This document shows positions 1 through 24,585 of a stretch of 36,001 nucleotides of DNA, one piece after another. Source of the DNA: a virus; UHGV virus genome UHGV-0251319; one strand, 5' to 3'. Every line of letters starts with the position of its first letter. Within the stretch, counting starts at the first letter, position 1. The position numbers and the translations under genes are program-made. The notes beneath the pieces are model-generated. The model had not been told where the DNA came from. It saw only the letters and a program-made list of their open reading frames with translations, and ran no database searches.

Positions 1-36
1 AATGAGATTTAAAATCTTCTAGATTAATTTCCATAA

Positions 37-1368
37 TTATTCACCTGGATTAGGTGCTGGGGTTGTACTTAAGTCTAAGCTATAAACAGGTGTTTCAAAC
101 GGCCCATAAATTAATTGACCATCGTTTAAATGATAAATTTTAAACCCGACTTTATTTTCACACGCAAATAGTTCAGTTAATTTTTCAATTTCCAATGAGC
201 CAATAACATCTTGAATGTGGAAATAAGAGAAATTACCGAAATAGATCACTGGTACTGTTGGATCGAATTTCTTCGTAGTTTCATTGTATTTATCTGCGTA
301 GTCTGTAACTTCTACTGGATAAGTAAATAACTTGTAATCAAAATCATCATTCCCAGCATCTTTAAGAATTGGATTACCAGTGCTATCTAGCATGGATTCC
401 AACAATGTTTGTGCTGCACGATTGATCATAAAGCGAGCGCCTGAACGCATAGCAGTCGGTAAAGCATTTTTTAATTGAACAACTTTTAAATAATCATTGT
501 CACCTTTACCAGTAAAGGCTACGGCTTTTTTAGCTAATGCTCCTTTGTTATCAGGACTTGAAAAATACCAGAATGTTTCTTTACGCAAGTACGCTTTCTT
601 TAGTTCATCTAACACGATAGCTTCAATGTCAAAGTCTGACATATGCGTTAATTTCTTCGTGACTTTAATAATTGCATCAAATTCGATTGGGTTTAAGTAA
701 ACATCATCAAATTCAATGTCAGTAAATGGAATTAAATTATTTTCATCACGTTCACTAGTAACTGTATTTGCTTCGGCTTGTTTTACTTGTACTGGGAAAC
801 CTTGAGTTCCTTTAGTTTGATGAACACTTGCAAATTTACGCAAAGGATTTTCTTCTTGTAGGTAAGAAATAATCTCTTTACTTAATTCTTGTGGCACCAA
901 TACTTTACCGTTGTTAAAACCAACACCAAATGAACGAGCTTGATTAGGTGTAATTCGACCAGCCAAATAGCGTAAGAACGCGCTACGTCGAGTTAATTTT
1001 TTCACTTTTTCTTCTCCCCGACTTGAAATACCTTTCCCGATAATATCTAAAACACGGCTGCGTTCTTTATCGTCAGCTGGTTCTAAATCATCTTCTTCAG
1101 TGCCTTTTCCGTCTACTTCTTCAACAATTTCATCAGTTGCTGCGCCTAAATCATCTACGACATCGCCTAATTCTGTCACATCTTCTTCAGGCAATTCTGC
1201 GATAGCATCGTTGATTTCGTCTAATTCTGCTGTGACTTCCTCCACTTGTGATTCAATATCACTTAATTCATCACGTGTTAAAGTTTCACTTTTTGCACGT
1301 TCTTCCATTGAAGCTAATTTTGCTTTTAATTTAGCAGCTCGTTTTTCTAAAATTTTACGCATTTTCAT
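37..1368 (-). CDS. Major capsid protein, HK97 fold, with an acidic coiled-coil N-terminal scaffold-like (delta) domain. No separate scaffold gene lies between the protease and the capsid gene.
   Basis: 443 aa ORF directly downstream of the prohead protease. The N-terminal 110 aa are highly charged (EE/DD-rich). The C-terminal part has capsid-like composition. Its position follows portal and protease. Confidence 0.8.
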   Translation of the reverse strand: MKMRKILEKRAAKLKAKLASMEERAKSETLTRDELSDIESQVEEVTAELDEINDAIAELPEEDVTELGDVVDDLGAATDEIVEEVDGKGTEEDDLEPADDKERSRVLDIIGKGISSRGEEKVKKLTRRSAFLRYLAGRITPNQARSFGVGFNNGKVLVPQELSKEIISYLQEENPLRKFASVHQTKGTQGFPVQVKQAEANTVTSERDENNLIPFTDIEFDDVYLNPIEFDAIIKVTKKLTHMSDFDIEAIVLDELKKAYLRKETFWYFSSPDNKGALAKKAVAFTGKGDNDYLKVVQLKNALPTAMRSGARFMINRAAQTLLESMLDSTGNPILKDAGNDDFDYKLFTYPVEVTDYADKYNETTKKFDPTVPVIYFGNFSYFHIQDVIGSLEIEKLTELFACENKVGFKIYHLNDGQLIYGPFETPVYSLDLSTTPAPNPGE

Positions 1369-1952
1369 TATTTATATTCTCCAATCGTTTTTAAAATTTT
1401 ATTTCTTAATTTAATTGTTTCAATGTTTTTTTCTTGGAACTTACTTCTTAATGAAGCTTCAGTATCTTCGTATGCAGGCAAAGGTACAATTGAGACTTCC
1501 CACAAATCAACATTGGTAATTCTAATAAGTGGAACATCACCAGAATAGTCCTCTTCTTGTGCAGTTACCCAGAAACCAAAACTACATTGATTAATATCAC
1601 CACGCGACATTGATTCTTTTAAATCATTCGCAAATGTGGTGTTCGGCAATGTAACCTCAAAATGCAACCCTCTTGAATCTTCTTCAATAATTAATGTATT
1701 AGCACTTTTACGGCCTAACACGTAATTCCAATCATGATTGAATAAGCAGCGAACATCTTTGTTTTTTGCTAGTGATTCGGAAAATGCACCAGGTGCAATC
1801 TCTTCATCATACCAACCATCTATGTTCGTACGTGAGTTAAAAACAGACGCGTACCCCTCAACTACAGTTGATTCACTGCCATCATCTAGGGAACGCGTCG
1901 TCATGTTTTTAATATCAAAACTTCTAATTTCCAACTTATCCAGTTGAATCAC
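1368..1952 (-). CDS. Prohead maturation protease (HK97 / S78 family)
   Basis: 194 aa ORF between the portal and capsid genes. The size and synteny are typical. Its start overlaps the capsid gene. Confidence 0.75.
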   Translation of the reverse strand: MIQLDKLEIRSFDIKNMTTRSLDDGSESTVVEGYASVFNSRTNIDGWYDEEIAPGAFSESLAKNKDVRCLFNHDWNYVLGRKSANTLIIEEDSRGLHFEVTLPNTTFANDLKESMSRGDINQCSFGFWVTAQEEDYSGDVPLIRITNVDLWEVSIVPLPAYEDTEASLRSKFQEKNIETIKLRNKILKTIGEYK

Positions 1953-3105
1953 CTTCTTCCATTTTAGACTTGTTAAGCTCGGTTAGTTCATCTAGCCCAA
2001 TCAAATCTTTCGATGCATAGAGCTTGGTTGATTCTTCTGTATTTAATCGTTCGGCACCTAAATCCACGCGTGCATCATCAGGTGTATAAACCATAGTACG
2101 AACTAAACCTTGCGTATTTGTGATTTTTTGTGACATTGTTAAATACTTTTTAATATCAATTGTTAAAGAAATACGATTTGTTGATTCTGGTCCAAAATAT
2201 AGTTCCGTTAAATGTTCACAGACATTCTGAACAATCGGATCAACAACGAATGCTTTTAAATAAATCGCTGCTTTCTCTAAATCAACTTTTAATAATTGAT
2301 TGTATGCGTCAGGATCAAAACCTAAAAACTTTGCAAGTTCTGGTTTATAGACATTTAAATACGAAAGAATTTTATCGTCTTGAACAGGACTTTCGAATCC
2401 TTCGATGGCGTAACCTTTAGACAACGGAATAATGACAGTCTTTCCTTCGTCTGGAATTTCTTCTAGTTGTCCTTGAATGGCATCAAGCATTGCGTTTTGC
2501 ATTGCGTTTTTTGGTGACAAATGAGTATCTAATTTCAGTAAGTACGCCAACAAGCCGCCTTTTTTATATTTTTCTGTCAAAGCTTTTTCTGCATTCATGA
2601 CCCCTTCTAAAGTATCTCTAGCTAAATCAATCAGTCCATTGCCATAATTATTCGATAATCCAATATTTTTAATTTGGCGAACTTCATTTTGATAAAGCGT
2701 ATGGCCGTCATATTTAAATTGTTTGATACCTTCTTCTGATATTTCTGGTGTAATTCCCTTCATGATGTGAAGCTGTTTACCGTCTTTCACCACAAATACT
2801 TCTCCTTGTAACAAATAGACATTTACAAGCAAACGTTTGAATTCAAAGTCGGTTAAATAACCATTTGGATGTTTCAAACTCTGCAGTTCTTTGGCTCCCT
2901 TAATGTCTTTTCCATCTTCTTTTTCGATTGTCCACGATCCACAAGCAAACATATTGGAAATTGCTAAAAGATAGTGATAAACGTCGCTAGAAGATAAAAT
3001 ATTTTCGTCACCCAAGACAAATTGATTCGCAAGTATTGAACTACCTAATACTTTTTTCTTACTCGACATACGAAATCTTTGATTGAACCATGATCTAATT
3101 CCCAA
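1936..3105 (-). CDS. Portal protein (HK97-family portal)
   Basis: 389 aa ORF immediately downstream of the large terminase. Size and position fit a portal. Confidence 0.8.
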   Translation of the reverse strand: MGIRSWFNQRFRMSSKKKVLGSSILANQFVLGDENILSSSDVYHYLLAISNMFACGSWTIEKEDGKDIKGAKELQSLKHPNGYLTDFEFKRLLVNVYLLQGEVFVVKDGKQLHIMKGITPEISEEGIKQFKYDGHTLYQNEVRQIKNIGLSNNYGNGLIDLARDTLEGVMNAEKALTEKYKKGGLLAYLLKLDTHLSPKNAMQNAMLDAIQGQLEEIPDEGKTVIIPLSKGYAIEGFESPVQDDKILSYLNVYKPELAKFLGFDPDAYNQLLKVDLEKAAIYLKAFVVDPIVQNVCEHLTELYFGPESTNRISLTIDIKKYLTMSQKITNTQGLVRTMVYTPDDARVDLGAERLNTEESTKLYASKDLIGLDELTELNKSKMEEGDSTG

Positions 3106-3123
3106 ATTCCCACCTCCTTTCAG

Positions 3124-4857
3124 TTATTTTCTGTTGTAAAGCTGTTTAATATAATCCTCATATTCTTCTTCGCTTCCAACTTCCACCATTAAATCCATTG
3201 AATCTTTATGACCAATTAAAAAAGCCACAAAACCATCAATATGTTCTGGTGACTTTCTTTTGCTGGGCGCTTTTTGACTTTGTATATTCGTTACAACTGT
3301 TGTATTGTTGGTACAAAAAATAAATAACGGATTGTCAGTTTGAACTCGTCCGTTATCTACTAGTATTTCAAAATCATCTAGCATTTCATTCATTACTGAT
3401 GGATATTGACCTACTTCGGCCGTATTGAATCCTTCCATTTCAAAACGTTCCACTAACTTTTCAGACATAGCTGGATCATAATTGATTTGAATAATGTCTA
3501 ATTCGTATTTGTTGTACATGTCAATGACATAGTTATAGACAAGATCATAATCAACAGTACGACCCTCACAAAGCGTTACAAAACCTTGTTCTGCATAATA
3601 TTGATAAGGAACATTTCTTAATTTTTCTTTTTCTTCAATATTATGCGTTGGTACAAAATACATTTGTTTTATTTTTATAATGCTTTCACCTTCATCATTA
3701 AAGGTTGGAATATTAATTGATACGCATGTCAAGTCAGTTGTTCTGGATAAATCAATACCGATAGCGACTTGTTCGCCTGTAATATCTCCTAAATCATCTA
3801 CCAAGCAATTATCAATTTGTTCTTTATCAAAATAATTTTCGGCATAATTGACAAAAACATTCAAATGCTTTGATAGAAACTCGGCTTTCCTAAATGGATT
3901 TCGTAAGGCATCTTTAAATTCCCCACGTAAAAAAGTGATATCAAACGAGACATATAAATTCGGATTGACCATTTCCCAAACTTTTTCATCTTCCCAGTTG
4001 TAACCTTTATTTGGTTCATAAATCATAATGAACCAGTCATCGTCATTATCTTCTTCAAGAATATGTTTACTATCTTGATAAATTTGAACACCTAAGGCCC
4101 CACTGTTTTTACCAGCAGTAGAACAAACTAAAAATAATGGTTCTGGTTGTGCAGCTTGTCCTGATTTCAAACCATCATATCTCGACGTGTCCTCCCACTC
4201 GTGAACTTCATCGGCAACAACAATATAAGTATTTTTACCATCGACTTTTTCACGCTTAGATAACACACGCAAATTGTTTTGATATTTGAAATCATCTTCA
4301 AAGAAAGCGTAACTGATAGTCGTTACTTTCTTTTCTTTCCGATAAACACGTGTACCATCAAGTAAATCATTATCGTTTTCAATAACGGTTGCTAAAGGAT
4401 TGGCAACATTTTGCGCTTGGTCAAAATCAGCGGCTAGGCAGTAAAATTGGGCGCCCTTCACACCTTCTCCATACATTCCATATAAAATTGGCGCGCCTTC
4501 CATTAAAGACTTACCGTTTTTCTTTGGCACCTGCAGGTATGATTTACGAATAACACGAACATTTCGTTGCCACTTATCAGACCATTTTTGCCAACCATAA
4601 ATATTTGAGAAATAAAACTTCTGCCAATCTTCTAATTCGAGCGGTTGCCCCGACCATTCACCAGTTGAATGTTTATAAAATGATTCGGTAAAACTTAGCA
4701 TCAAATTTGCTTTTTCCAGATCAAAGAAAATATCTTTCCGTTTCTTCCACTTGTTATATCGTTTAACTGCTAAATAGATTGATTTTGGATACCGTTCTTT
4801 GTGTCTGCGAACCGATTTGGCAAATTTATCAGCATAATTGACAGTCATATCAATCAT
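3124..4857 (-). CDS. terL: Terminase large subunit
   Basis: 577 aa. ATPase-like N-terminal region and nuclease-like C-terminal region. It follows the small subunit with a 4-nt overlap. Confidence 0.9.
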   Translation of the reverse strand: MIDMTVNYADKFAKSVRRHKERYPKSIYLAVKRYNKWKKRKDIFFDLEKANLMLSFTESFYKHSTGEWSGQPLELEDWQKFYFSNIYGWQKWSDKWQRNVRVIRKSYLQVPKKNGKSLMEGAPILYGMYGEGVKGAQFYCLAADFDQAQNVANPLATVIENDNDLLDGTRVYRKEKKVTTISYAFFEDDFKYQNNLRVLSKREKVDGKNTYIVVADEVHEWEDTSRYDGLKSGQAAQPEPLFLVCSTAGKNSGALGVQIYQDSKHILEEDNDDDWFIMIYEPNKGYNWEDEKVWEMVNPNLYVSFDITFLRGEFKDALRNPFRKAEFLSKHLNVFVNYAENYFDKEQIDNCLVDDLGDITGEQVAIGIDLSRTTDLTCVSINIPTFNDEGESIIKIKQMYFVPTHNIEEKEKLRNVPYQYYAEQGFVTLCEGRTVDYDLVYNYVIDMYNKYELDIIQINYDPAMSEKLVERFEMEGFNTAEVGQYPSVMNEMLDDFEILVDNGRVQTDNPLFIFCTNNTTVVTNIQSQKAPSKRKSPEHIDGFVAFLIGHKDSMDLMVEVGSEEEYEDYIKQLYNRK

Positions 4858-5312
4858 GATTGACCACCACGCATCTTTCTAAATTCAACCAAACGATTAT
4901 TTGTTTGTGGTTCATCTTTTTTAGCTTCTTCTTTTTTCTTAGCATTTTCACTTGCTAAAGGATCAACATAATCAAGGCCACCGCTTTTCATATCAAGGCC
5001 TAGTTGGTTTAATAACTTAGTTTTTTTCTCACTCCAAACTTCAACTTGTTGGGCCAAAGGATGCTTAATTTCGTTTCTTGACCCATTTTTGTTTGTGTGA
5101 ACTTTTGTGGATTTAAAACCACTGTCTTTCCACTCTAAATACTTGATATGATAGACTTCACACGCATCCAGATACATTTCAATCAAAGGGTTCAAAGCAG
5201 GCGTGAACTTTCCTAATGATTTTAATATTTCTATGATACGCATTCGCTCAAATTCCTTATGTTGCAAGGCTTCATCAAGGATTTTTTGTTTTTTACTTTT
5301 ACGTCCAGCCAT
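4854..5312 (-). CDS. terS: Terminase small subunit (P27-like)
   Basis: 152 aa basic protein (MAGRKSKKQK...). It lies directly upstream of terL and downstream of an HNH gene, which is the classic cos-phage arrangement. Confidence 0.7.
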   Translation of the reverse strand: MAGRKSKKQKILDEALQHKEFERMRIIEILKSLGKFTPALNPLIEMYLDACEVYHIKYLEWKDSGFKSTKVHTNKNGSRNEIKHPLAQQVEVWSEKKTKLLNQLGLDMKSGGLDYVDPLASENAKKKEEAKKDEPQTNNRLVEFRKMRGGQS

Positions 5313-5415
5313 TTTTACCCCCCTTTCTTTTTTTGAAAATGCTCTGGAGGTGTCTAAAGAGGTCCCCCTACCCTATCCCCATGAAAAAAAATTTAAATTA
5401 ATTTCAGAGGGGGGC
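5313..5415. other. Putative cos (cohesive-end) region
   Basis: HNH-terS intergenic region. It has G/C tracts that are unusual in this AT-rich genome (ACCCCCCT ... CCCCCTACCCTATCCCC ... AGGGGGGC) and a 7-bp inverted repeat CCCCCCT/AGGGGGG about 75 nt apart. Confidence 0.35.
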
Positions 5416-5799
5416 TTAAAAATAATCTGCGGGATTATAATTTTTTTTCATTTCAATTTCTTTTTGCGTTTGTGGACGATATTCAACTTTTGGATGACAC
5501 GTTGCACAAACCAAACGTAAGTTGTTCATGTCTAATCTTATATTTGGATTCAACCAAATTGGCTTGATATGATCCACTTGACTATCACGACCAAACACAG
5601 GTTTATGACAAATTGTACATTTATACTTATCACGAAAGCGGACAGCATCAGCAACGCTTTTCCAGTCATCTGATTTGTAGAATGATTTGTTTTTAGAATA
5701 GTAACGTTTGATCACTCGCTTCTTTCGCTTATGCTCGTCGCAGTAGCTACCCTTTTCTAATAGAGTACGGCAACCTTCTTGGCGGCAATACTTAGGCAT
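5416..5799 (-). CDS. HNH endonuclease (terminase-associated)
   Basis: 127 aa. CxxC...CxxC zinc motif plus an H-N-H motif (DHIKPIW...N...CATCH). It sits next to terS. Confidence 0.85.
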   Translation of the reverse strand: MPKYCRQEGCRTLLEKGSYCDEHKRKKRVIKRYYSKNKSFYKSDDWKSVADAVRFRDKYKCTICHKPVFGRDSQVDHIKPIWLNPNIRLDMNNLRLVCATCHPKVEYRPQTQKEIEMKKNYNPADYF

Positions 5800-6079
5800 C
5801 TTTCAACACGGTGCGCTTTTCGATAGGATCCCACACCTCAACCCCAAATGGTGTTTGGCGTTCAATTGTTTGTGGTGCTTCATCATTAGTAGATTCGTAT
5901 TTAATACCTTCATTACTAATTGTTAGGTCACCAACTTTAATAGTCCCTGTTGTAATTTCATTAGCTTCAACAGGTTCTTCAGTTACTTCCACATTGTCAG
6001 GTTGCTCAACTTCTTTAACTGCTGGTTTCTTTTTAGCAGTCTTTGTTTCCTGCACTTCTTCTTTCTTTGCTTTTGCCAT
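5792..6079 (-). CDS. Hypothetical phage protein (Lys/Glu-rich N-terminus)
   Basis: 95 aa ORF whose start lies 4 nt inside the upstream HNH ORF. Plausible RBS GAAAGGGGA. Confidence 0.4.
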   Translation of the reverse strand: MAKAKKEEVQETKTAKKKPAVKEVEQPDNVEVTEEPVEANEITTGTIKVGDLTISNEGIKYESTNDEAPQTIERQTPFGVEVWDPIEKRTVLKDA

Positions 6080-6114
6080 TTGACATTTCCCCTTTCAAAA
6101 TGAAAACCCTACTA

Positions 6115-6151
6115 CAATTAAAACAAAAAGGACTGCATATAAATGCAGTCC
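6115..6151 (-). terminator. Rho-independent terminator downstream of tRNA-Trp
   Basis: Perfect 10-bp stem AGGACTGCAT/ATGCAGTCCT with loop ATAA (6128..6151). On the minus strand it is followed by TTTTTGTTTTAATT. Confidence 0.6.
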
Positions 6152-6231
6152 TAGTGAAAGGTAGTAGCGCCAATTTGTTTGTCCGAACATTCATTGACGA
6201 TCTATATTATTTAAGTAGCTTATGCCACTTA

Positions 6232-6303
6232 CTGGAACAATAGGACTCGAACCTATACTAACGGTTTTGGAGACCGCTGCTCTACCGATTAAGCTATGCT
6301 CCA
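6232..6303 (-). tRNA. trnW: tRNA-Trp (anticodon CCA), phage-encoded
   Basis: Manual cloverleaf fold. Acceptor stem UGGAGCA/UGUUCCA (one G-U pair), D-stem GCUU/GAGC, anticodon stem GCGGU/ACCGU, loop CU-CCA-AA, variable loop UAGU, T-stem AUAGG/CCUAU with loop UUCGAGU, discriminator G. The CCA tail is not encoded. Confidence 0.85.
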
Positions 6304-6603
6304 TTAACTCTCGCAAACCTGTAGAAAAAAGAGAGAGGAAATCCACCTCACTTCTTTAGTTTTATAATTTGCAGTTTGCGAGAGAATCTAAATGAGATCA
6401 CAAGTGACTAAACGAAGAAAGTAGATTTTTTTACTTCCTTGTAATCTCAAATCAAAAAAATAAGTAGGCAATCGTTCCGTTAATGTATTTGTGTAAGTGT
6501 GTCGCATTTCTTATTTTTTTGACACTATCATAATAACCCGTTTCAAAGGTATATGAAGTGTAGATAAAGTGTATAAAAGAGGTATAAAAAGTGTAATAAA
6601 TGG

Positions 6604-7122
6604 CTACTTAAAAGCAACCAGTTCCAGTGCCGAAGCAAATTGAACAATAATCATATTAGATTCTTGTTTCACTGATTCTTCGCTGATGCAATTCCGTTGC
6701 GCTGCTAGATAGATCGGATTGCCGTTGATATAACGGTCATAGAAGATTCTTTTTCTTCGCTCGGTAACATCTGGTTTGTGCGGATGCTGAATCGCAGAAT
6801 AACCTCTAACAAAAAGCTTATGAAGGTAATCAAACTCTTCTTGGGCTTCTTCTTTCTGGATTAACATTTGCTCGGCTTCGAAAACGTTATTGGCCGTTGA
6901 TGGTGGAACCAAAGAGAATGAAGCTGTTACTTTTGGTTCCCTCGGCTGGCCAACACGACATCTAGCAGCAAGATAGGCAGATAGGAACACACTGACATTA
7001 TGTTTTGTTTGTTCCATATCTACGTCCTTTGCATCTGGTGTTTCATATTTCTTTACGTCAAAAAGTACCATCCTTTGATTCCCCCGTTTATGGTATAATA
7101 TTCGTGTCGAGAATATTACCAA
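6604..7122 (-). CDS. arpU: ArpU-family late-gene transcriptional regulator. The ORF call begins at a TTG; the likely true start is the ATG at 7071.
   Basis: 155-172 aa. Its position, just upstream of the packaging module, is typical for ArpU/late activators in Enterococcus, Listeria and Lactococcus phages. Composition resembles the ArpU family. Confidence 0.6.
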   Translation of the reverse strand: MVIFSTRILYHKRGNQRMVLFDVKKYETPDAKDVDMEQTKHNVSVFLSAYLAARCRVGQPREPKVTASFSLVPPSTANNVFEAEQMLIQKEEAQEEFDYLHKLFVRGYSAIQHPHKPDVTERRKRIFYDRYINGNPIYLAAQRNCISEESVKQESNMIIVQFASALELVAFK

Positions 7123-7460
7123 CAGCCGGAGGAATCCGGCTTTTTATTTTTCTACTAAATATACTTTTTACAATACGTACTATGAGATAGTATTTTCAAA
7201 TACATTTACTCATGATATAATCATATTAACTTTCTTGGGGATTTTATTTCTGAAATAAATTTCTCCTTTTCTATGATAACTGGCGGAAAACAGTTATCGA
7301 TAGTTCCTGTCTCCACCAGAGACACAATGTCAACCTTATTTGTTGGCACTATTAGCACTTTACTTGGGAAAAGTGCTAACTACCACATTAGTCAGCCATT
7401 GGTCGGCTGGCTTTTTGTTTGCAAAAAATCGGCTAGTTATTGTAAAAAAGTTGCAATAAG

Positions 7461-7709
7461 TTAAAACTCCAATGTAATTGGCCTCCCGTATTTTAAAATT
7501 CTCCATTCGCCATCTTTTGTATTGGTTTTATTCATATGATTTCTTTCATCACGAGCTATCGTATAATCGAAAAATAAATCGGCTTTCTCTGCTCCATGTA
7601 AGTACTCAACATACACTCCATCAACTTGCCTTCCTAAGATAAAAACTTCTGGATAACTCATACGCTGGAACCCCCTAAATATAGCCCTAATCCCAAAATA
7701 AACGAGCAT
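7461..7709 (-). CDS. Hypothetical phage protein. The probable start is the internal M at 7661, which gives an ATGA overlap with the upstream ORF.
   Basis: The 82 aa ORF track entry; reading from the internal M (about 7661) gives MSYPEVFILGRQ.... Confidence 0.4.
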   Translation of the reverse strand: MLVYFGIRAIFRGFQRMSYPEVFILGRQVDGVYVEYLHGAEKADLFFDYTIARDERNHMNKTNTKDGEWRILKYGRPITLEF

Positions 7710-7843
7710 GAAAGGAAATAAACAAGGTCACTGCTTGTTATGTCATTGCCATACACGAAATAGCTCACGGTTGCTTTGGCTACAAGAATCATTATTGCAA
7801 TGCCACTAACTTTATTTATTACTCTTTTCCAGTTGCGTTTCAT
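7658..7843 (-). CDS. Small 2-TM membrane protein
   Basis: 61 aa with two hydrophobic helices. It abuts the upstream DUF1642 gene stop. Confidence 0.35.
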   Translation of the reverse strand: MKRNWKRVINKVSGIAIMILVAKATVSYFVYGNDITSSDLVYFLSCSFILGLGLYLGGSSV

Positions 7844-8575
7844 TTATTCACCATCCACTTTCACAGCAAACAGCCAGTAACGTTCATCAATTGCTTTGAT
7901 TTCTTGTTCTGTATGTTTCAGTCTTCCGATGCATAACCCTTTATTGCCTTGTGTATATACAGCTCCATCGGTATCAGTCCAAAGATAACAAAACTCTGTG
8001 TCACCGATTTTTGGTAAAGCAACATAAAATAGAGGTTCTTCATTTTCATTCCTTAACTCTTCAATTGATATGCATTCTGAGCAATCGATACTATTCATTT
8101 TTTTAACTTCTGTATTTATACCAATGAGATTAGCAACTTCCAACGCTTCTTCTTCCTTTTTAAAAACAATAATTTTCTCGTCGCATCTAAAATAATCTGT
8201 AACACCTCTGACCGCCCAATACAACTGCTCTTTCTCGACTTCATATCCCTCTAACCACGCACGAGCATACGTCTCTTCATTGTCCTTTATCCAACTATTA
8301 ACCTTACCGTATTCAGCGCCATATAGGTCCCACGGTTTGAATGAAGCGCTTAGACTATCACCTTTCTTTTTGGCATACTCAATCCATTCCGCAACAAACT
8401 TCGGCACCACGACTTTTTTCGGTTCGTCTAGCTGTTTTGCTAAGCTAATTGCTCTTTCGTTGGCATAGTCAGCACCTCTCAAATAATCAAGGCTGTCTGT
8501 AGAAACTTCTATGCATTCTAACTCTTCAATCAATTCTTGTTTATTCATCGCTGTTTCCCTCCTATGGATATGCAT
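7844..8575 (-). CDS. DUF1642-like phage protein
   Basis: The MNKQELIEELE ... VVVPKFVAEWIEYAKK N-terminus resembles the DUF1642 family that is common in Firmicutes phages. The true start is probably the second Met, around 8548. Confidence 0.5.
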   Translation of the reverse strand: MHIHRRETAMNKQELIEELECIEVSTDSLDYLRGADYANERAISLAKQLDEPKKVVVPKFVAEWIEYAKKKGDSLSASFKPWDLYGAEYGKVNSWIKDNEETYARAWLEGYEVEKEQLYWAVRGVTDYFRCDEKIIVFKKEEEALEVANLIGINTEVKKMNSIDCSECISIEELRNENEEPLFYVALPKIGDTEFCYLWTDTDGAVYTQGNKGLCIGRLKHTEQEIKAIDERYWLFAVKVDGE

Positions 8576-18123: not shown

Positions 18124-18606
18124 ATGAAAAAATGTTTTTTTGTAACTCCAATTGGAGAGAAAAATTCTGACATTCGTAAACAATCTGACGAATTACTAGA
18201 TCAAATTCAATTTTGTTTTTCTGAAAATAAATTGGAATTCGAAATTATTCGTGCTGACTTAGAATTTCATAATCAACAGAACATAGAACGAATTCATTTT
18301 TGTATCAAAGAAGCAGATTTAATCCTTGCAGATCTATCTGGCAACAATCCGAACGTATACTATGAATTAGGGTATGCACGTGCTCTCTGTAAAGAAGTCA
18401 TTCAAATTAGAGACAGTAATACAGCTAAACTTCCTTTTGATGTTTCTGGCTACAACACCCCAACGTATGACTTATCAACAGCTGAATCTAGAAAAAACTT
18501 TAGAATTCTTCTGAAAAAAACAATTGAAAACATAAGTTTTGATACATCTACTATCCATATTGGCGGTGGTATTACTTTTGAAAAAGTAGACCCTACTGAT
18601 AATTAG
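18124..18606 (+). CDS. Nucleoside 2-deoxyribosyltransferase / DNPH1-like Rossmann-fold protein (moron)
   Basis: 160 aa. Motifs ADLILADLSG and NPNVYYELGYARALCKEVIQI match the NDT-family ADxxxAxLDG and D.GT.FE.GYA(Q)GKPVI motifs, including the catalytic Glu. Opposite orientation to all neighbouring genes. Confidence 0.55.
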   Translation: MKKCFFVTPIGEKNSDIRKQSDELLDQIQFCFSENKLEFEIIRADLEFHNQQNIERIHFCIKEADLILADLSGNNPNVYYELGYARALCKEVIQIRDSNTAKLPFDVSGYNTPTYDLSTAESRKNFRILLKKTIENISFDTSTIHIGGGITFEKVDPTDN

Positions 18607-20016: not shown

Positions 20017-20327
20017 ATTTATTACTCACTCCCTTTTATTTTTAATTTGTAAGCTAAAAAATTAGCTAATTCAATAAATTTTATTGACTTACTCTACAAT
20101 ATTTTGTAGAATAAGTGCATAGCTAAATAAGACTTTTTTAAGCCTAGTAAAACAACACTTTTTACCGTTCCCCAACGATTTTTTAGTTTGTTTCTCGGTT
20201 TTATTTGCGAACTTATTAGCTAATATTTTAGCTTACGGACATAGTATATTAAAAAGTTTTGTAGATGTCAACTGATTTTCTACGTTTTTTTATAGAAATA
20301 TCCGAAGCTTATGGAGGAAAGCTTGAT
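20017..20327. promoter_or_regulatory. Genetic-switch region: divergent promoters and operator repeats with core TTAGCTAA
   Basis: AGCTAAAAAATTAGCTAAT (20046..20066), ATAGCTAAAT (20119..), ATTAGCTAATATTTTAGCTTAC (20218..20239). Candidate -35 TTGACT, 17-nt spacer, -10 TAGAAT at about 20086..20115. Confidence 0.5.
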
Positions 20328-20651
20328 ATGACTGTATTTGATAGAGTTAAAAAATTAGCAGATAGTCAAAAAATATCTATTGTGGAACTTGAAGAAAAGT
20401 TAAATTTTAGTCGAAATTCATTGTATGCTTGGAAAAAAAGCAAGCCTTCTATCGATAAATTAGAAGCTGTCGCAAATTATTTTGGAGTTTCAACGGATTA
20501 TTTATTGGGTCGTGAAATCTCTAATAAACCAAAGCAATCTGATGACTTGGATGAAATTTTAGACAATGTGATGAGTTTTGATGGTGAGCCTTTGGATGAT
20601 CATGATCGGGAAGTTATTCGTGCTTACTTAAAAGGAAGATTCGGAAAATAA
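20265..20651 (+). CDS. CI-like XRE-family repressor. The probable true start is 20328 (MTVFDRVKKL...), which has a GGAGGAAAG RBS.
   Basis: HTH VFDRVKKLADSQKISIVELEEKLNFSRNSLYAWKK. First gene of the plus-strand lysogeny operon. Confidence 0.7.
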   Translation: MSTDFLRFFIEISEAYGGKLDMTVFDRVKKLADSQKISIVELEEKLNFSRNSLYAWKKSKPSIDKLEAVANYFGVSTDYLLGREISNKPKQSDDLDEILDNVMSFDGEPLDDHDREVIRAYLKGRFGK

Positions 20652-20659
20652 TTTAAAGG

Positions 20660-21013
20660 TTGTGCTATATGAAAAGTATCAAAGAGTTGGTGGAAGAATA
20701 TAATGTGGAGTTAGTTTTTGCTCCAATAAATAAGCGCGCGTGTTACGAGTCGGTCAAAAGGATAATTTTCGTAAACCAAAATTTATCTATCGAAGAACAA
20801 GAAGAAGCTATATTCCATGAGTTTAAACATGTGGTTTCCCATTCGGATTACATGGAGTTATATAAAATCCCTTCTTTTAGAAATAAAATGGAAGCTGAGG
20901 CAGATCATCATATGTTTAAATGCCTTATTGAAAAAAATGATGGACAGTTTAATTATTCTAATGTAATTACACACTACAATTTAAAGATGGGACAGGAAAA
21001 TTATTTAAAATAA
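20660..21013 (+). CDS. immA: ImmA/IrrE-family metallopeptidase (HEXXH). The ORF call begins at a TTG; the probable true start is the ATG at 20669.
   Basis: [12 protein letters not shown]xxH motif. It lies directly downstream of the repressor, as in the ImmR/ImmA pair. Confidence 0.55.
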
Positions 21014-21047
21014 AAAAGCTTGCTATTTAGAGAGTGAGAGAATTTCA

Positions 21048-21776
21048 TTGAAGATAAATCAAAAAATCTATAATTACTCTATTGTTGTTTTAGCATTAAT
21101 TTCAATCGCTTTAGTTATTTTTGATTTTTCAAATGTCATTAATATTAGTAATCCACCGTTTAACATTATTGATAATTTTATCTTAATCACATTTACAATT
21201 GACTACATTGTTAGATTCATTATTTCAAAAAATAAAATCAAATTTTTTAAAGAAAATATTTTTGATCTGATTGCGATAATTCCTTTTGATGCTATTTTTT
21301 CTTTCTTTAGAGTCGCTAGGTTGTTTCGTATAGCTAAAATAGCTAGACTTGCAAAGCTAACAAGAGCGATAGGTGTGGTTGGGAAATTAACAAGAAACAC
21401 TAAATCATTTTTAAATACTAATGGATTTTTAAACGTAATTTATTTAAGTTCAGTTCTTATTGTTATTTCAGCAATGATTTACTCATATGCAGAAAACGTC
21501 CCGTACATTGATGCATTTTGGTGGGCTTTAGTCACCACAACAACTGTTGGTTATGGCGATATTTCACCAACTACGCCATTAGGTAGAGTTGCAGCAATCA
21601 TTTTAATGATTTTAGGAATTGGATTTATTGGTATGCTTACTTCGACTATTACAGAATATTTTAATAAAAGTAAGAATGAAGAAAATGAATCAGATGATAA
21701 AATTGAATTACTTATTAATAAAATTGATCAATTAGAAAGTACGATTGAACAACTAAAAGAGGAAATAAAAAAATAA
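21048..21776 (+). CDS. Voltage-gated K+ channel, 6TM (Kv-like), 242 aa
   Basis: S4 helix [19 protein letters not shown] with a positive charge at every third position. Selectivity filter [10 protein letters not shown]3-like [11 protein letters not shown]-terminal coiled coil. Confidence 0.8.
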
Positions 21777-21870
21777 CGCACCCTCCGACCAAGAAGTTGT
21801 GCGTTAAAAATAGAACCAAAATAGGCTTATTTTGTTACGCCTATTTTACCAAAAATAATGAGGTGAAACA

Positions 21871-23238
21871 ATGGCAAATGAAATAAAACAAGTAGCGTTA
21901 TACATACGTGTGTCTACAGATCAACAAGCTAAACATGGTGATAGTTTGGATGAACAACAACACACTTTAAATGAATACGTAAGACAACAAGGAAACATGA
22001 GAGTATTCAAAACTTATATAGATGATGGCATTTCAGGTCAGAAACTATATCGTGATGAATTCCAAAAATTATTAGATGATGTTAAAAAAGGAAGAATCGA
22101 TACGATCTTATTTACAAAATTAGATAGATGGTTTAGAAATTTACGTCATTATTTAAATATTCAAGAAATACTAGACAAAAACAATGTTACTTGGTTAGCC
22201 GTTACACAACCTTTCTTTAACACCGAAACAGCAATGGGCCGTTCATTTGTAAATCAATCAATGGGTTTTGCTGAGCTTGAAGCACAGATGACTTCCGAAA
22301 GAATTCGTGCCGTTTTCGATAATAAAATACGAAAAGGTGAAGTTGTTAGTGGAAAAGTACCGCTTGGCTACGATATCAAAGACAAACATCTTGTTCCGAA
22401 TGAAAAAGCTGAAATAGTAAAAGAAATTTTCCAATACTATTTAGAAACTGGCAGCATGCGTGCCACCGTTAGACATTTAGAAAATCATTTCAGCATGACA
22501 AGAGATTATCAAAGTGTTCGGCAAATGCTTACTAATAGAAAATATATTGGTGAATTACGAGATAATAAAAATTTTTGTGAACCTATTGTTGATCGTGACG
22601 TATTCGAAAGAGTACAATTGCAACTTTCAAAAAATATTCGTATGAATAAAAAACGCGACTATATGTTTACTGGATTGTTAGTTTGTAGTGAATGTGGTTG
22701 TAATTATTCCGCCACGGCGGTTATTAGCCGATATGTACGCAAAGACGGTACGACAAACCCGAATGAAAGACATTTATATAGATGCACCAAAAACCGTAAT
22801 AACGTAAAAAAATGTAGTAATAAAAAAGGCATATATGAAACTACACTAGAAAATTTCCTTCTGGAAAATATTGAAAAACAAGCAGAAGAATTGTCTGTAA
22901 GAATGCAAAAAGAACCCGCAGTAAAAAAAACTAAGAATATTAACGATAAAATAAAAAAGAAAATAGATCGACTAAAAAAAGCTTATCTAAATGATGTTAT
23001 AACATTAGAGGAATATAAAGAAGATAGAGAAGAATTAGAAGCACTTTTAATTCCTGAACAAGATAATAAAATTGCTAAAATTGATTTGAGTTCACTGCAT
23101 AACTACTCTACTGCTGAATTTAGAGAAGGATATAAACAGCTAACTATTTCGGAAAAAAGTTCTTTATGGCGGCAAGTGATTAAAAATATTGTAGTTTATC
23201 CAGATGGAAATTTGAAAATAAATTTTTTAGGATATTGA
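21871..23238 (+). CDS. int: Large serine recombinase (integrase)
   Basis: Resolvase-type catalytic region YIRVSTDQQ. Zinc-ribbon and coiled-coil C-terminal half (CSECGC...YRCTK). 455 aa. Confidence 0.85.
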   Translation: MANEIKQVALYIRVSTDQQAKHGDSLDEQQHTLNEYVRQQGNMRVFKTYIDDGISGQKLYRDEFQKLLDDVKKGRIDTILFTKLDRWFRNLRHYLNIQEILDKNNVTWLAVTQPFFNTETAMGRSFVNQSMGFAELEAQMTSERIRAVFDNKIRKGEVVSGKVPLGYDIKDKHLVPNEKAEIVKEIFQYYLETGSMRATVRHLENHFSMTRDYQSVRQMLTNRKYIGELRDNKNFCEPIVDRDVFERVQLQLSKNIRMNKKRDYMFTGLLVCSECGCNYSATAVISRYVRKDGTTNPNERHLYRCTKNRNNVKKCSNKKGIYETTLENFLLENIEKQAEELSVRMQKEPAVKKTKNINDKIKKKIDRLKKAYLNDVITLEEYKEDREELEALLIPEQDNKIAKIDLSSLHNYSTAEFREGYKQLTISEKSSLWRQVIKNIVVYPDGNLKINFLGY

Positions 23239-23343: not shown

Positions 23344-24585
23344 TTAATAATTTAAGCTTTGACCAGGATAAATCAAGTTAGGATTAGTTAATCCGTTCCG
23401 TTGTGCTAAAGCTTGGTATGTCGTGCCAAGTTTAGCCGCAATGCTAGATAAATTATCACCGTATTGAACTGTGTAAACATTACTTGTTGCCGATCCATTT
23501 ACCTTCAAAACTTGACCAGGATAGATTAGATTTGGATTGGCCAATCCATTTAATGCCGCTAACGTTTGATAGTCTGTGCCATGTTGGTAAGCAATACTTG
23601 ATAATGTTTCGCCATGTTGAACTACGTGTGTTGTTTCTGGTTGCTTATCAGGGACAACTGTTGCATCTGGTAATAGTTCAATATCACCTTTGCTAATCCA
23701 TGACAAAATGCCTTCTAGCAACACTCTGCTTCCAGTTACTTCTTGTACTTTATAGCTGTTTCCTTTTACCCAATCTGGAATAGCTTCGCCAGTTGCCCAA
23801 GCATCTACATTAAATTTTACTTTGACGATATCACCAACTTTTACTGCAGAAGTAGGTGTTTTTTCAACTTCTTTACCTTCTTCAATAGCTGGTGTGTTTG
23901 TTTCTGGTTGGTTATTTTTTGTATAACCATTATCGGTAATACCTGTTAAATCAACGTTACCATCTAGCCCTCCTGCAACGTAGGTTGACGTGAACTGAAA
24001 AATACCGATATTTTCAAATGAAGGAAAATAATTGTAATTTGGATAAGGTGTCACTACATAATCTGGATATTCTGCCATCCATAATTGATACTTCTTTGCA
24101 ATTCGTGATAGATCATAAGCTGAAGTAAGATACCCTTTGTATCCGTAAAGCATCGGTGTATATCCAGCCTCTTTGATATAGTCTAACGCCCATAGCGTTA
24201 CATCCGTCGATTGAACGCCATCTTCCGCATCTAAGGCGACAATTGATCCCTTTGGTGTTTGTACTTTAGGTAAAAAGTAATCTAATACTTGCTTTGCATT
24301 TTCGTAGGTAAGGACATTTTGCCACCATACATACGTATGCGCGCGTTTACCTTGAGCAATCGTACTAGCTACTTGACTAGAATAAGTAACTTGATCATAA
24401 ATTCCATAGTTATTTTGCCCACCAATTTGTGAAATTGAGAATTTATCATGTGAATAACCAAATGTTGCTTGATATCCATTCCAAATAGACAAATCAACGC
24501 CTTGGTCTCCTTTTGCAGCAAATGTACTAACTGGCGCTAAAAAAAACAGGCCTACCAATAATGTTACTAATAGTTTCTTTTTCAT
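23344..24585 (-). CDS. Endolysin: N-terminal signal peptide, GH25 muramidase, SH3-like domain, two LysM domains
   Basis: MKKKLLVTLLVGLFFLAPVSTFA signal-like N-terminus. The region around GVDLSIWNG resembles the GH25 N-terminal region. Two C-terminal LysM repeats (YTVQYGDNLSSIAAKLG...LIYPGQ). Confidence 0.8.
   Translation of the reverse strand: MKKKLLVTLLVGLFFLAPVSTFAAKGDQGVDLSIWNGYQATFGYSHDKFSISQIGGQNNYGIYDQVTYSSQVASTIAQGKRAHTYVWWQNVLTYENAKQVLDYFLPKVQTPKGSIVALDAEDGVQSTDVTLWALDYIKEAGYTPMLYGYKGYLTSAYDLSRIAKKYQLWMAEYPDYVVTPYPNYNYFPSFENIGIFQFTSTYVAGGLDGNVDLTGITDNGYTKNNQPETNTPAIEEGKEVEKTPTSAVKVGDIVKVKFNVDAWATGEAIPDWVKGNSYKVQEVTGSRVLLEGILSWISKGDIELLPDATVVPDKQPETTHVVQHGETLSSIAYQHGTDYQTLAALNGLANPNLIYPGQVLKVNGSATSNVYTVQYGDNLSSIAAKLGTTYQALAQRNGLTNPNLIYPGQSLNY

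Follow-up and report, generated by a model that had tools for sequence, protein, structure and literature searches.

Prokaryotic voltage-gated K+ (Kv) channels such as KvAP and KvLm are central to the structural biology of voltage sensing, and to our knowledge their physiological roles in bacteria are largely unknown; the viral K+ channels that we know of are pore-only proteins. We analysed a 36,001 nucleotide (nt) stretch of viral DNA, the genome UHGV-0251319 (hereafter the window), and describe within the lysogeny module of this temperate phage of Enterococcus faecalis an open reading frame (ORF) at 21048-21776 on the plus strand whose 242 amino acid product is, from its sequence and predicted structure, very probably a functional voltage-gated and K+-selective channel of the KvLm/KvAP type. 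The protein class is known and the family is already present in databases (PHROG 7872). What appears to be undescribed is a K+ channel bearing a voltage sensor that temperate Firmicutes phages carry in their repressor operon as a widespread and conserved cargo gene. Our search of the literature found no study of a prophage-encoded K+ channel with six transmembrane (TM) helices; viral ‘potassium channels’ receive a brief mention as auxiliary genes in one metagenomic paper, and the paper on phage PLE2, which carries a homolog, does not mention the channel gene.

The best solved sequence relative of the phage protein is the pore module of KvLm (Lmo2059; PDB 4h33/4h37) from Listeria monocytogenes, a channel shown to be K+-selective and activated by depolarisation (PMC2151562). 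The match to 4h33 (E=9e-26) extends over the S4-S5 linker, the pore and the C-terminus and is followed by matches to Kv1.2, Kv1.3, Shaker and KvAP, and tblastn aligned the phage protein to the Listeria chromosomal gene at 38-42 % identity over 84-95 % of the query. Both proteins are approximately 250 amino acids in length and share the 6TM layout and the TTVGYGD filter. KvLm differs in being chromosomal, located between ctaA, copper-resistance genes and mscL, in falling into a separate clade of the tree, and in having S, H, gap, gap, gap and S at the positions of R91, R94, K97, R100, K103 and R106, whereas the phage protein retains all seven charges of its S4 helix. Certain database matches labelled ‘Listeria phage’ presented a phage-borne KvLm as a candidate, which was rejected on inspection of the contig. 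The record concerned (L183, OR848322.1, ‘UNVERIFIED_ORG: Listeria phage LM 4-14-1’) consists over positions 1-7911 of Listeria chromosomal DNA, with a full-length KvLm gene at 837-1589 accompanied by ctaA-like, copper-resistance, mscL, bile-salt hydrolase (bsh) and groEL genes, and provides no evidence for a phage-borne KvLm.

The phage protein has the same Ion_trans architecture as KvAP and the Kv1.2/Shaker-type channels, as well as their charge-transfer centre (F-x-x-D/E in S2, D in S3) and their long S4-S5 linker; the sequence matches are at 1e-20 to 3e-16. Unlike them the phage channel has neither a T1 nor any other cytoplasmic domain, being a minimal protein with a short C-terminal coiled coil, and its S4 is more highly charged than is usual among these channels. 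Virus-encoded channels with the same pore fold include those of the Kcv/Kesv type, a K+ channel of Chlorella viruses acting during entry, and the 2TM K+ channels of lytic phages (phrog_14690, phrog_15627). These are pore-only proteins of approximately 85-150 amino acids without a voltage sensor that match query residues ~124-183, whereas the present channel has a complete S1-S4 sensor and is encoded by a temperate tailed phage, on its lysogeny strand. Channels of these two kinds were the only structural matches in BFVD, with the pore alone covered, and 2TM channels were the only matches in lytic Aeromonas, Acinetobacter and Pseudomonas phages.

The original prediction, made from the letters of the window, read the ORF as a 6TM Kv-type K+ channel with seven regularly spaced S4 charges, a TVGYGD selectivity filter and a C-terminal coiled coil, and each of these features was confirmed by direct reading, with Pfam, AlphaFold2 (AF2) and Foldseek in agreement on the channel as a whole. 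The ORF has a TTG start and a TAA stop and would encode six TM helices, a P-loop and the coiled coil. The hidden Markov model (HMM) search proposed as a check gave a match to Pfam Ion_trans (PF00520, E=4.2e-23) over residues 6-211 on a model of 241 positions, far beyond chance, and a match to Ion_trans_2 (PF07885, E=3.6e-19) over residues 136-205, covering the pore. A full-length match to PHROG 7872 (E=9e-107; residues 2-242 against positions 9-253 of the 254-position profile) carries the annotation ‘unknown function’. A score of 49 bits to the NCBIfam ‘hyperpolarization-activated K channel’ model, which has a cutoff of 300, was rejected as a basis for functional assignment.

The S4 voltage-sensor helix (amino acids 85-108; 21300-21371, plus strand) carries R88, R91, R94, K97, R100, K103 and R106 at a strict period of three, and the S4-S5 linker adds K113, R116 and K119; across 70 phage copies, the basic positions of S4 are almost without exception R or K. 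F49 and D52 in S2 and D73 in S3 make up the gating-charge transfer centre; these residues are invariant in an alignment of 45 sequences, and the S2 stretch containing F49 and D52 as well as the S3 stretch align with segments of Kv1.2 (NIIDIVAIIP in Kv1.2 S3). The selectivity filter TTVGYGD (T165-D171; 21540-21560, plus strand) is likewise invariant in the family alignment and is kept in 69 of the 70 distinct phage copies. At the C-terminus, a heptad coiled coil (amino acids 214-241; 21687-21770, plus strand), presumed to be the tetramerisation helix, has I219, L222, I226, L229, I233, L236 and I240 at its a/d positions, L229 being nearly invariant. The heptad repeat is compatible with a four-helix bundle, and the channel is presumably a tetramer assembled through the pore and the coiled coil.

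An AF2 monomer model built on the 45-homolog alignment (predicted local distance difference test, pLDDT, 74), which replaced a single-sequence model of pLDDT 48, places helices at residues 2-27, 38-59, 63-85, 90-119, 126-149, 153-164 (the P helix), 177-210 and, at the C-terminus, 214-241. In the hydropathy profile five merged hydrophobic regions coincide with S1, S2, S3, S5 and S6, and the charged S4 has none. The structure prediction that had been called for returned the Kv fold class, the top Foldseek matches in the PDB all being Kv channels (Kv1.2, Kv1.3, Shaker, Kv2.1) at probability 1.0, with TM-scores that are low (0.3-0.56) because the packing of sensor against pore is unreliable in a monomer model; we therefore take these matches as evidence of fold class only. 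By homology to KvLm and from the long S4-S5 linker, the channel would be shut at the normal resting potential and opened by depolarisation.

The window represents a phiFL1A-like (Phifelvirus) temperate phage of E. faecalis, with ~92 % nucleotide identity over the early and lysogeny regions. Although the original prediction placed the channel in a prophage, the integrase directly adjoins the endolysin (23344-24585, minus strand) and the window contains neither a host flank nor host DNA, so that it corresponds to the phage genome in the attP (circular/virion) arrangement rather than to an integrated prophage. The lysogeny operon begins with a CI-like helix-turn-helix (HTH) repressor of the XRE type (20265-20651; Pfam HTH_3 5e-8, phrog_8 4e-25), followed by an ImmA/IrrE-type metalloprotease (Peptidase_M78; 20660-21013; PF06114 1.3e-5, phrog_87 8e-20), the channel, and a large serine integrase (21871-23238; Resolvase 1e-32, Recombinase and Zn_ribbon_recom; 97 % nucleotide identity to phiFL1A gp01). 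All four genes lie on the plus strand, separated by gaps of 8, 34 and 94 nt, and no terminator-like site was found inside the CI-ImmA-channel cluster. This agrees with the predicted placement of the channel between the immunity genes and the serine integrase, apparently within the repressor transcription unit. Upstream of the repressor gene is a promoter-like site (20084-20112, plus strand; TTGACT-17-TAGAAT, 10/12, a consensus match only), which is faced by a divergent promoter-like site for the cro-like gene (20271-20243, minus strand). The count of sites in the promoter scan of the lysogeny region did not exceed that in shuffled sequence, and for this reason no internal promoter can be claimed for the channel.

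Comparison with phiFL1A, in which CI, ImmA and the integrase follow one another with nothing between them, delimits the channel as a discrete insertion. Homology by blastn stops at 21017 and resumes at 21763, and junction alignment identifies a segment of 745 bp (21018-21762, plus strand) missing from phiFL1A that holds the channel gene together with its ribosome-binding region. A short, A-rich direct repeat of 10 nt, AAATAAAAAA, flanks the insertion; its left copy lies at the junction at 21008-21017 (plus strand; alignment with phiFL1A and L004), and its right copy falls within the last codons of the channel gene at 21763-21772 (plus strand; junction alignment). A discrete insertion absent from phiFL1A, lying on the lysogeny strand in the slot between immunity genes and integrase, has the marks of a lysogeny-module moron. 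The spacer that precedes the integrase (21777-21870) is kept directly after ImmA in phiFL1A and is conserved, too, in E. faecalis prophages that have a tyrosine integrase. Two conserved hairpins at 21774-21806 and 21820-21845 on the plus strand (RNA fold -21.7 kcal/mol, z=-4.05) make this region a possible operon terminator and module junction. As the insertion is upstream of this presumed end of the immunity unit, we infer on good grounds, from the geometry of the operon, that the channel is transcribed with the repressor in the lysogen. The spacer is also common to phages with unrelated serine and tyrosine integrases (window 21777-21870, L001 4778-4878, L004 6730-6825), and it may serve as a module-junction or terminator sequence, possibly guiding recombination between lysogeny modules.

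Recurrence of the channel between integrase and repressor had been set beforehand as a check, and the placement proved to be common. Slots were surveyed with home-made HMMs for the repressor, ImmA and integrases across 80 IMG/VR contigs and 80 species-representative genomes. A repressor(/ImmA)-channel-integrase order on one strand was found in 72 of the 80 contigs and in approximately 15 of the 80 genomes, the latter including Lachnospiraceae, Oscillospiraceae, Anaerovoracaceae and Synergistaceae. The gene is present in at least 148 IMG/VR contigs, and a protein search returned 2276 homologs at E<=1e-10, among them a cluster of 456 E. faecalis proteins with lysogeny-module placement beside a tyrosine integrase in several flanking host contexts. 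In phages PLE2 (Lacticaseibacillus casei) and JNU_P5 (Limosilactobacillus fermentum), genes of 44-46 % identity, annotated ‘ion transporter’ in GenBank, immediately follow the repressor/protease genes and precede the integrase, the channel start in JNU_P5 overlapping the preceding gene. In L. plantarum prophages the channel follows either an HTH+M78 pair or an S24-type CI, and lysogeny-module placement is also seen in Carnobacterium, in E. hulanensis and in a small integrative island. The phage slot spans several Lactobacillales genera as well as Clostridia. Nearly always, the channel is the gene that directly follows the repressor/ImmA. Within E. faecalis phages, channels of 86-99 % identity occur alongside any of three integrases, three variants of ImmA and no fewer than five of CI. 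Of eight phage homologs that were compared, seven, all from E. faecalis, have the TTG start and N-terminus in common, the others beginning within a few residues, and the ratio of nonsynonymous to synonymous substitution (dN/dS) among phage copies, 0.07-0.27, indicates purifying selection.

Two further observations concern the carriers and neighbours of the gene. A channel of 58 % identity, annotated as multispecies Lactobacillales, occurs in L187 (1-6070) on a small island that also encodes an integrase, HTH regulators and a replication protein (REP_ORF2-G2P) and has no structural phage genes nearby; the island may be a satellite or a carrier resembling phage-inducible chromosomal islands (PICI-like). 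In some Lactobacillaceae prophages a predicted two-TM protein of ~80 amino acids is encoded directly downstream of the channel (L013, 6738-6980; L153, 8701-8952; L031, 8693-8947); it is absent from the window, occurs also beside a chromosomal copy in Fructobacillus, and may be an accessory subunit captured along with the channel.

Homologs are also found outside phages. The possibility raised beforehand that they might be ordinary chromosomal genes only does not hold, prophage-slot copies being common, but many homologs of 50-55 % identity are indeed plain chromosomal genes, which stand alone in Lapidilactobacillus, Latilactobacillus sakei, Enterococcus mediterraneensis and many other genomes. 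Among 128 immediate neighbours of chromosomal copies the commonest families are housekeeping ones (for example pyridine-nucleotide oxidoreductases, LtaS-type sulfatases and peptidases), and matches to defence genes are rare. In neighbour-joining (NJ) trees the clade to which the window's channel belongs (E. faecalis, Carnobacterium, other enterococci and Pseudolactococcus) is prophage-borne except for a 6.6-kb Lachnospiraceae contig (L026) with neighbours of metabolic type. Prophage and chromosomal copies occur side by side in neighbouring clades of Lactobacillaceae and Clostridia; the KvLm clade and one large clade of Lactobacillaceae contain chromosomal copies only. These trees carry no support values and hence do not establish the number of transfers between host and phage. 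The sequence relationships indicate that the phage channel derives from, or exchanges with, host chromosomal Kv genes, and the simplest reading is that temperate phages have repeatedly swapped the gene with host chromosomes, the channel itself showing no detectable change. A seven-charge S4 as a phage-specific trait was considered and dropped, as chromosomal members of the same subfamily carry 5-9 charges. Several Lactobacillaceae species have two chromosomal paralogs (L024/L065, L027/L077, L025/L051), one close to the phage type (~47-49 % identity) and the other of 37-40 % identity with a shorter and less charged S4.

The company that the channel keeps in phages agrees with the suggestion that it occupies a moron or defence slot, known defence and exclusion genes being found between repressor and integrase. 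In channel-bearing prophages the co-residents of the slot include AbiD/Abi_2 (three), Abi_alpha, PD-Lambda-1, ThsA-like SIR2/STALD, TIR_2 and SLATT_1 proteins, together with PemK-like toxins, GIY-YIG/T5orf172 proteins, an NS_2-type DNA/RNA endonuclease, a homolog of Lipoprotein_Ltp and several predicted lipoproteins. Judged by these contents the slot is an exclusion and abortive-infection hotspot. Predicted lipoproteins with a signal peptide ending in a cysteine lipobox lie between ImmA and the channel in four loci (L110, 6919-7833; L131, 7585-7983; L169, 7479-7991; L171, 7391-7927) and recall Ltp-type superinfection-exclusion lipoproteins.

From this association and from precedents for channel-like effectors, we tentatively favour a role in phage exclusion or abortive infection by voltage-triggered release of K+. 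RexB of the lambda RexAB system and gp31 of phage Sbash are prophage-expressed membrane proteins proposed to form ion channels that abort infection (PMC6426596). The RexAB and Sbash gp30-gp31 genes resemble the present locus in being co-expressed with or near the repressor; RexB and gp31 differ in having four TM helices, in requiring a cytoplasmic sensor partner (RexA or gp30, DUF4747) and in being proposed to depolarise the membrane, and there is no homology between them and the channel. No RexA-like (DUF4747) or other partner gene was found beside the channel, which is flanked directly by CI, ImmA and the integrase. A conductance selective for K+ draws the membrane towards the K+ equilibrium potential (E_K), repolarising or hyperpolarising rather than depolarising it. 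The RexB-like depolarising action envisaged in the original prediction is for that reason unlikely for a channel whose K+ filter is kept in nearly all phage copies. A second precedent is Hailong, a two-gene defence system of a nucleotidyltransferase and a protein with an IRK-type K+-channel domain (PMC13586616), which establishes that K+-channel-like pores serve as antiviral effectors. By its description the Hailong channel protein is set apart by pentapeptide repeats and the lack of an S1-S4 sensor, and no nucleotidyltransferase gene was found next to the phage channel, unlike in Hailong. The Sie2009 and Ltp-type exclusion genes of lactic-acid-bacteria phages occupy the repressor-integrase slot and encode membrane-associated products expressed in the lysogen. 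A Lipoprotein_Ltp homolog shares the slot with the channel in related prophages; these exclusion proteins nevertheless act by blocking the injection of DNA, as small lipoproteins or membrane proteins rather than ion channels, and have no relationship to the channel in sequence or fold.

In the mechanism that we propose for such antiviral protection, the channel would be a moron of temperate Firmicutes phages that closes the CI/ImmA operon at its 3′ end and is made in the membrane of the lysogen, the benefit to lysogen and prophage being protection against other phages. S4 would directly sense the membrane depolarisation caused by infection, and, once open, the channel would let K+ leave the cytoplasm while the leak caused by the invader lasts. 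Loss of K+ could then starve translation and replication, resulting in abortive infection, or disturb the ionic conditions of genome entry, resulting in exclusion. The more specific proposal of a one-gene antiviral system, in which S4 reads the depolarisation from an incoming or maturing phage, the pore dumps K+, and host Kv genes have been repeatedly recruited to the repressor operon for this purpose by temperate phages of several Firmicutes classes, is rather unlikely as a complete account.

Several points weigh against an antiviral role. The polarity of gating is not readable from sequence, and the voltage of half-maximal activation (V1/2) of KvLm, +154 mV (PMC2151562), shows that thresholds measured in vitro can be far from physiological. 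A K+-selective pore cannot by itself collapse the membrane potential, and only amplifies K+ loss where another leak is present; the channel can also clamp the potential near E_K. PADLOC-DB v2, a release that does not include Hailong, contained no significant defence-model match for the channel, the best being PDC-S05 at E=0.008. Close chromosomal homologs stand alone among housekeeping genes with almost no defence genes nearby, chromosomal and phage copies interleave in the NJ tree, and we detected no phage-specific sequence adaptation, so that an unchanged housekeeping function fits at least as well.

These last observations lead to lysogenic conversion, a possible if doubtful explanation, in which the channel plays the part in the lysogen that its chromosomal relatives play in other Firmicutes, contributing to homeostasis of K+ or membrane potential. 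It might act as a K+ battery that buffers the potential during energy downshift, or provide electrogenic K+ movement for pH or osmotic homeostasis, raising the fitness of the host and hence of the prophage with no infecting phage in the mechanism. In enterococci and lactic acid bacteria pH homeostasis depends centrally on K+ uptake, which counts in its favour, as do the interleaving of the copies, the presence of all functional residues in phage and chromosomal copies alike (including an S4 of 6-9 charges), the housekeeping neighbourhoods and the strong purifying selection with strict retention of the K+ filter. Moreover, the only E. faecalis proteins among the 120 best matches are of the phage type (at least 93 % identity), so the phage may be the sole source of this type of channel in the species. 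L. plantarum, however, has a chromosomal homolog (L072) besides its prophage copy, which means that the phage copy can be redundant. The dominance of defence and exclusion genes in the slot also speaks against lysogenic conversion, and prokaryotic Kv channels have themselves no established physiological role.

It is improbable that the channel instead serves the life cycle of its own phage. Holin triggering depends on membrane energisation, and a channel remaining from lysogeny could set the potential that the phage's holin encounters once induction has begun, and thereby adjust the timing of lysis and the burst size, or could couple host energetics to the maintenance or induction of lysogeny. 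The physical link to the immunity genes would suit such a role, the channel being nearly always first after the repressor/ImmA and showing, in E. faecalis phages, closer co-variation with ImmA than with CI or the integrase. PhiFL1A and other close relatives nevertheless complete both cycles without a channel, the gene lies on the lysogeny strand outside the lytic programme, and its occurrence behind S24-type repressors without ImmA argues against a specific coupling to ImmA. A neutral passenger, acquired from a host by illegitimate recombination and carried without function, would account for the A-rich direct repeat at the junctions and for the existence of host chromosomal relatives, but is strongly disfavoured by the low dN/dS, the intact functional motifs, the TTG start kept in the seven E. 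faecalis phage copies that share an N-terminus, the abundance of the gene in IMG/VR and in the E. faecalis cluster, and its identical position in unrelated phage backgrounds across bacterial classes.

Apart from the channel, a 160 amino acid ORF at 18124-18606 on the plus strand runs opposite to the surrounding early genes and is missing from phiFL1A, which has a gap between gp11 and gp10 at this place. Its product matches a TIR-effector model in PADLOC (2e-9), has a weak Pfam match to nucleoside 2-deoxyribosyltransferase and a match to phrog_3634 (unknown function), with no sequence relative in the PDB. This is probably a second moron expressed in the lysogen and a candidate defence gene.

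A complete voltage-sensor K+ channel is thus a common and conserved cargo, apparently expressed in lysogens, of temperate phages from Enterococcus, several other Lactobacillales genera and Clostridia. At 242 amino acids, with seven S4 charges and a coiled coil, the protein is a compact candidate for biophysics, and the E. faecalis prophage offers a tractable system in which to study membrane voltage and K+ flux in conflict between phages or in the fitness of lysogens in the gut and in fermentations. Should the channel confer resistance, it would bear on phage therapy against E. faecalis. If the one-gene antiviral proposal is true, membrane voltage would be a directly sensed signal of infection, and this would be the first demonstrated physiological role of any prokaryotic Kv channel.

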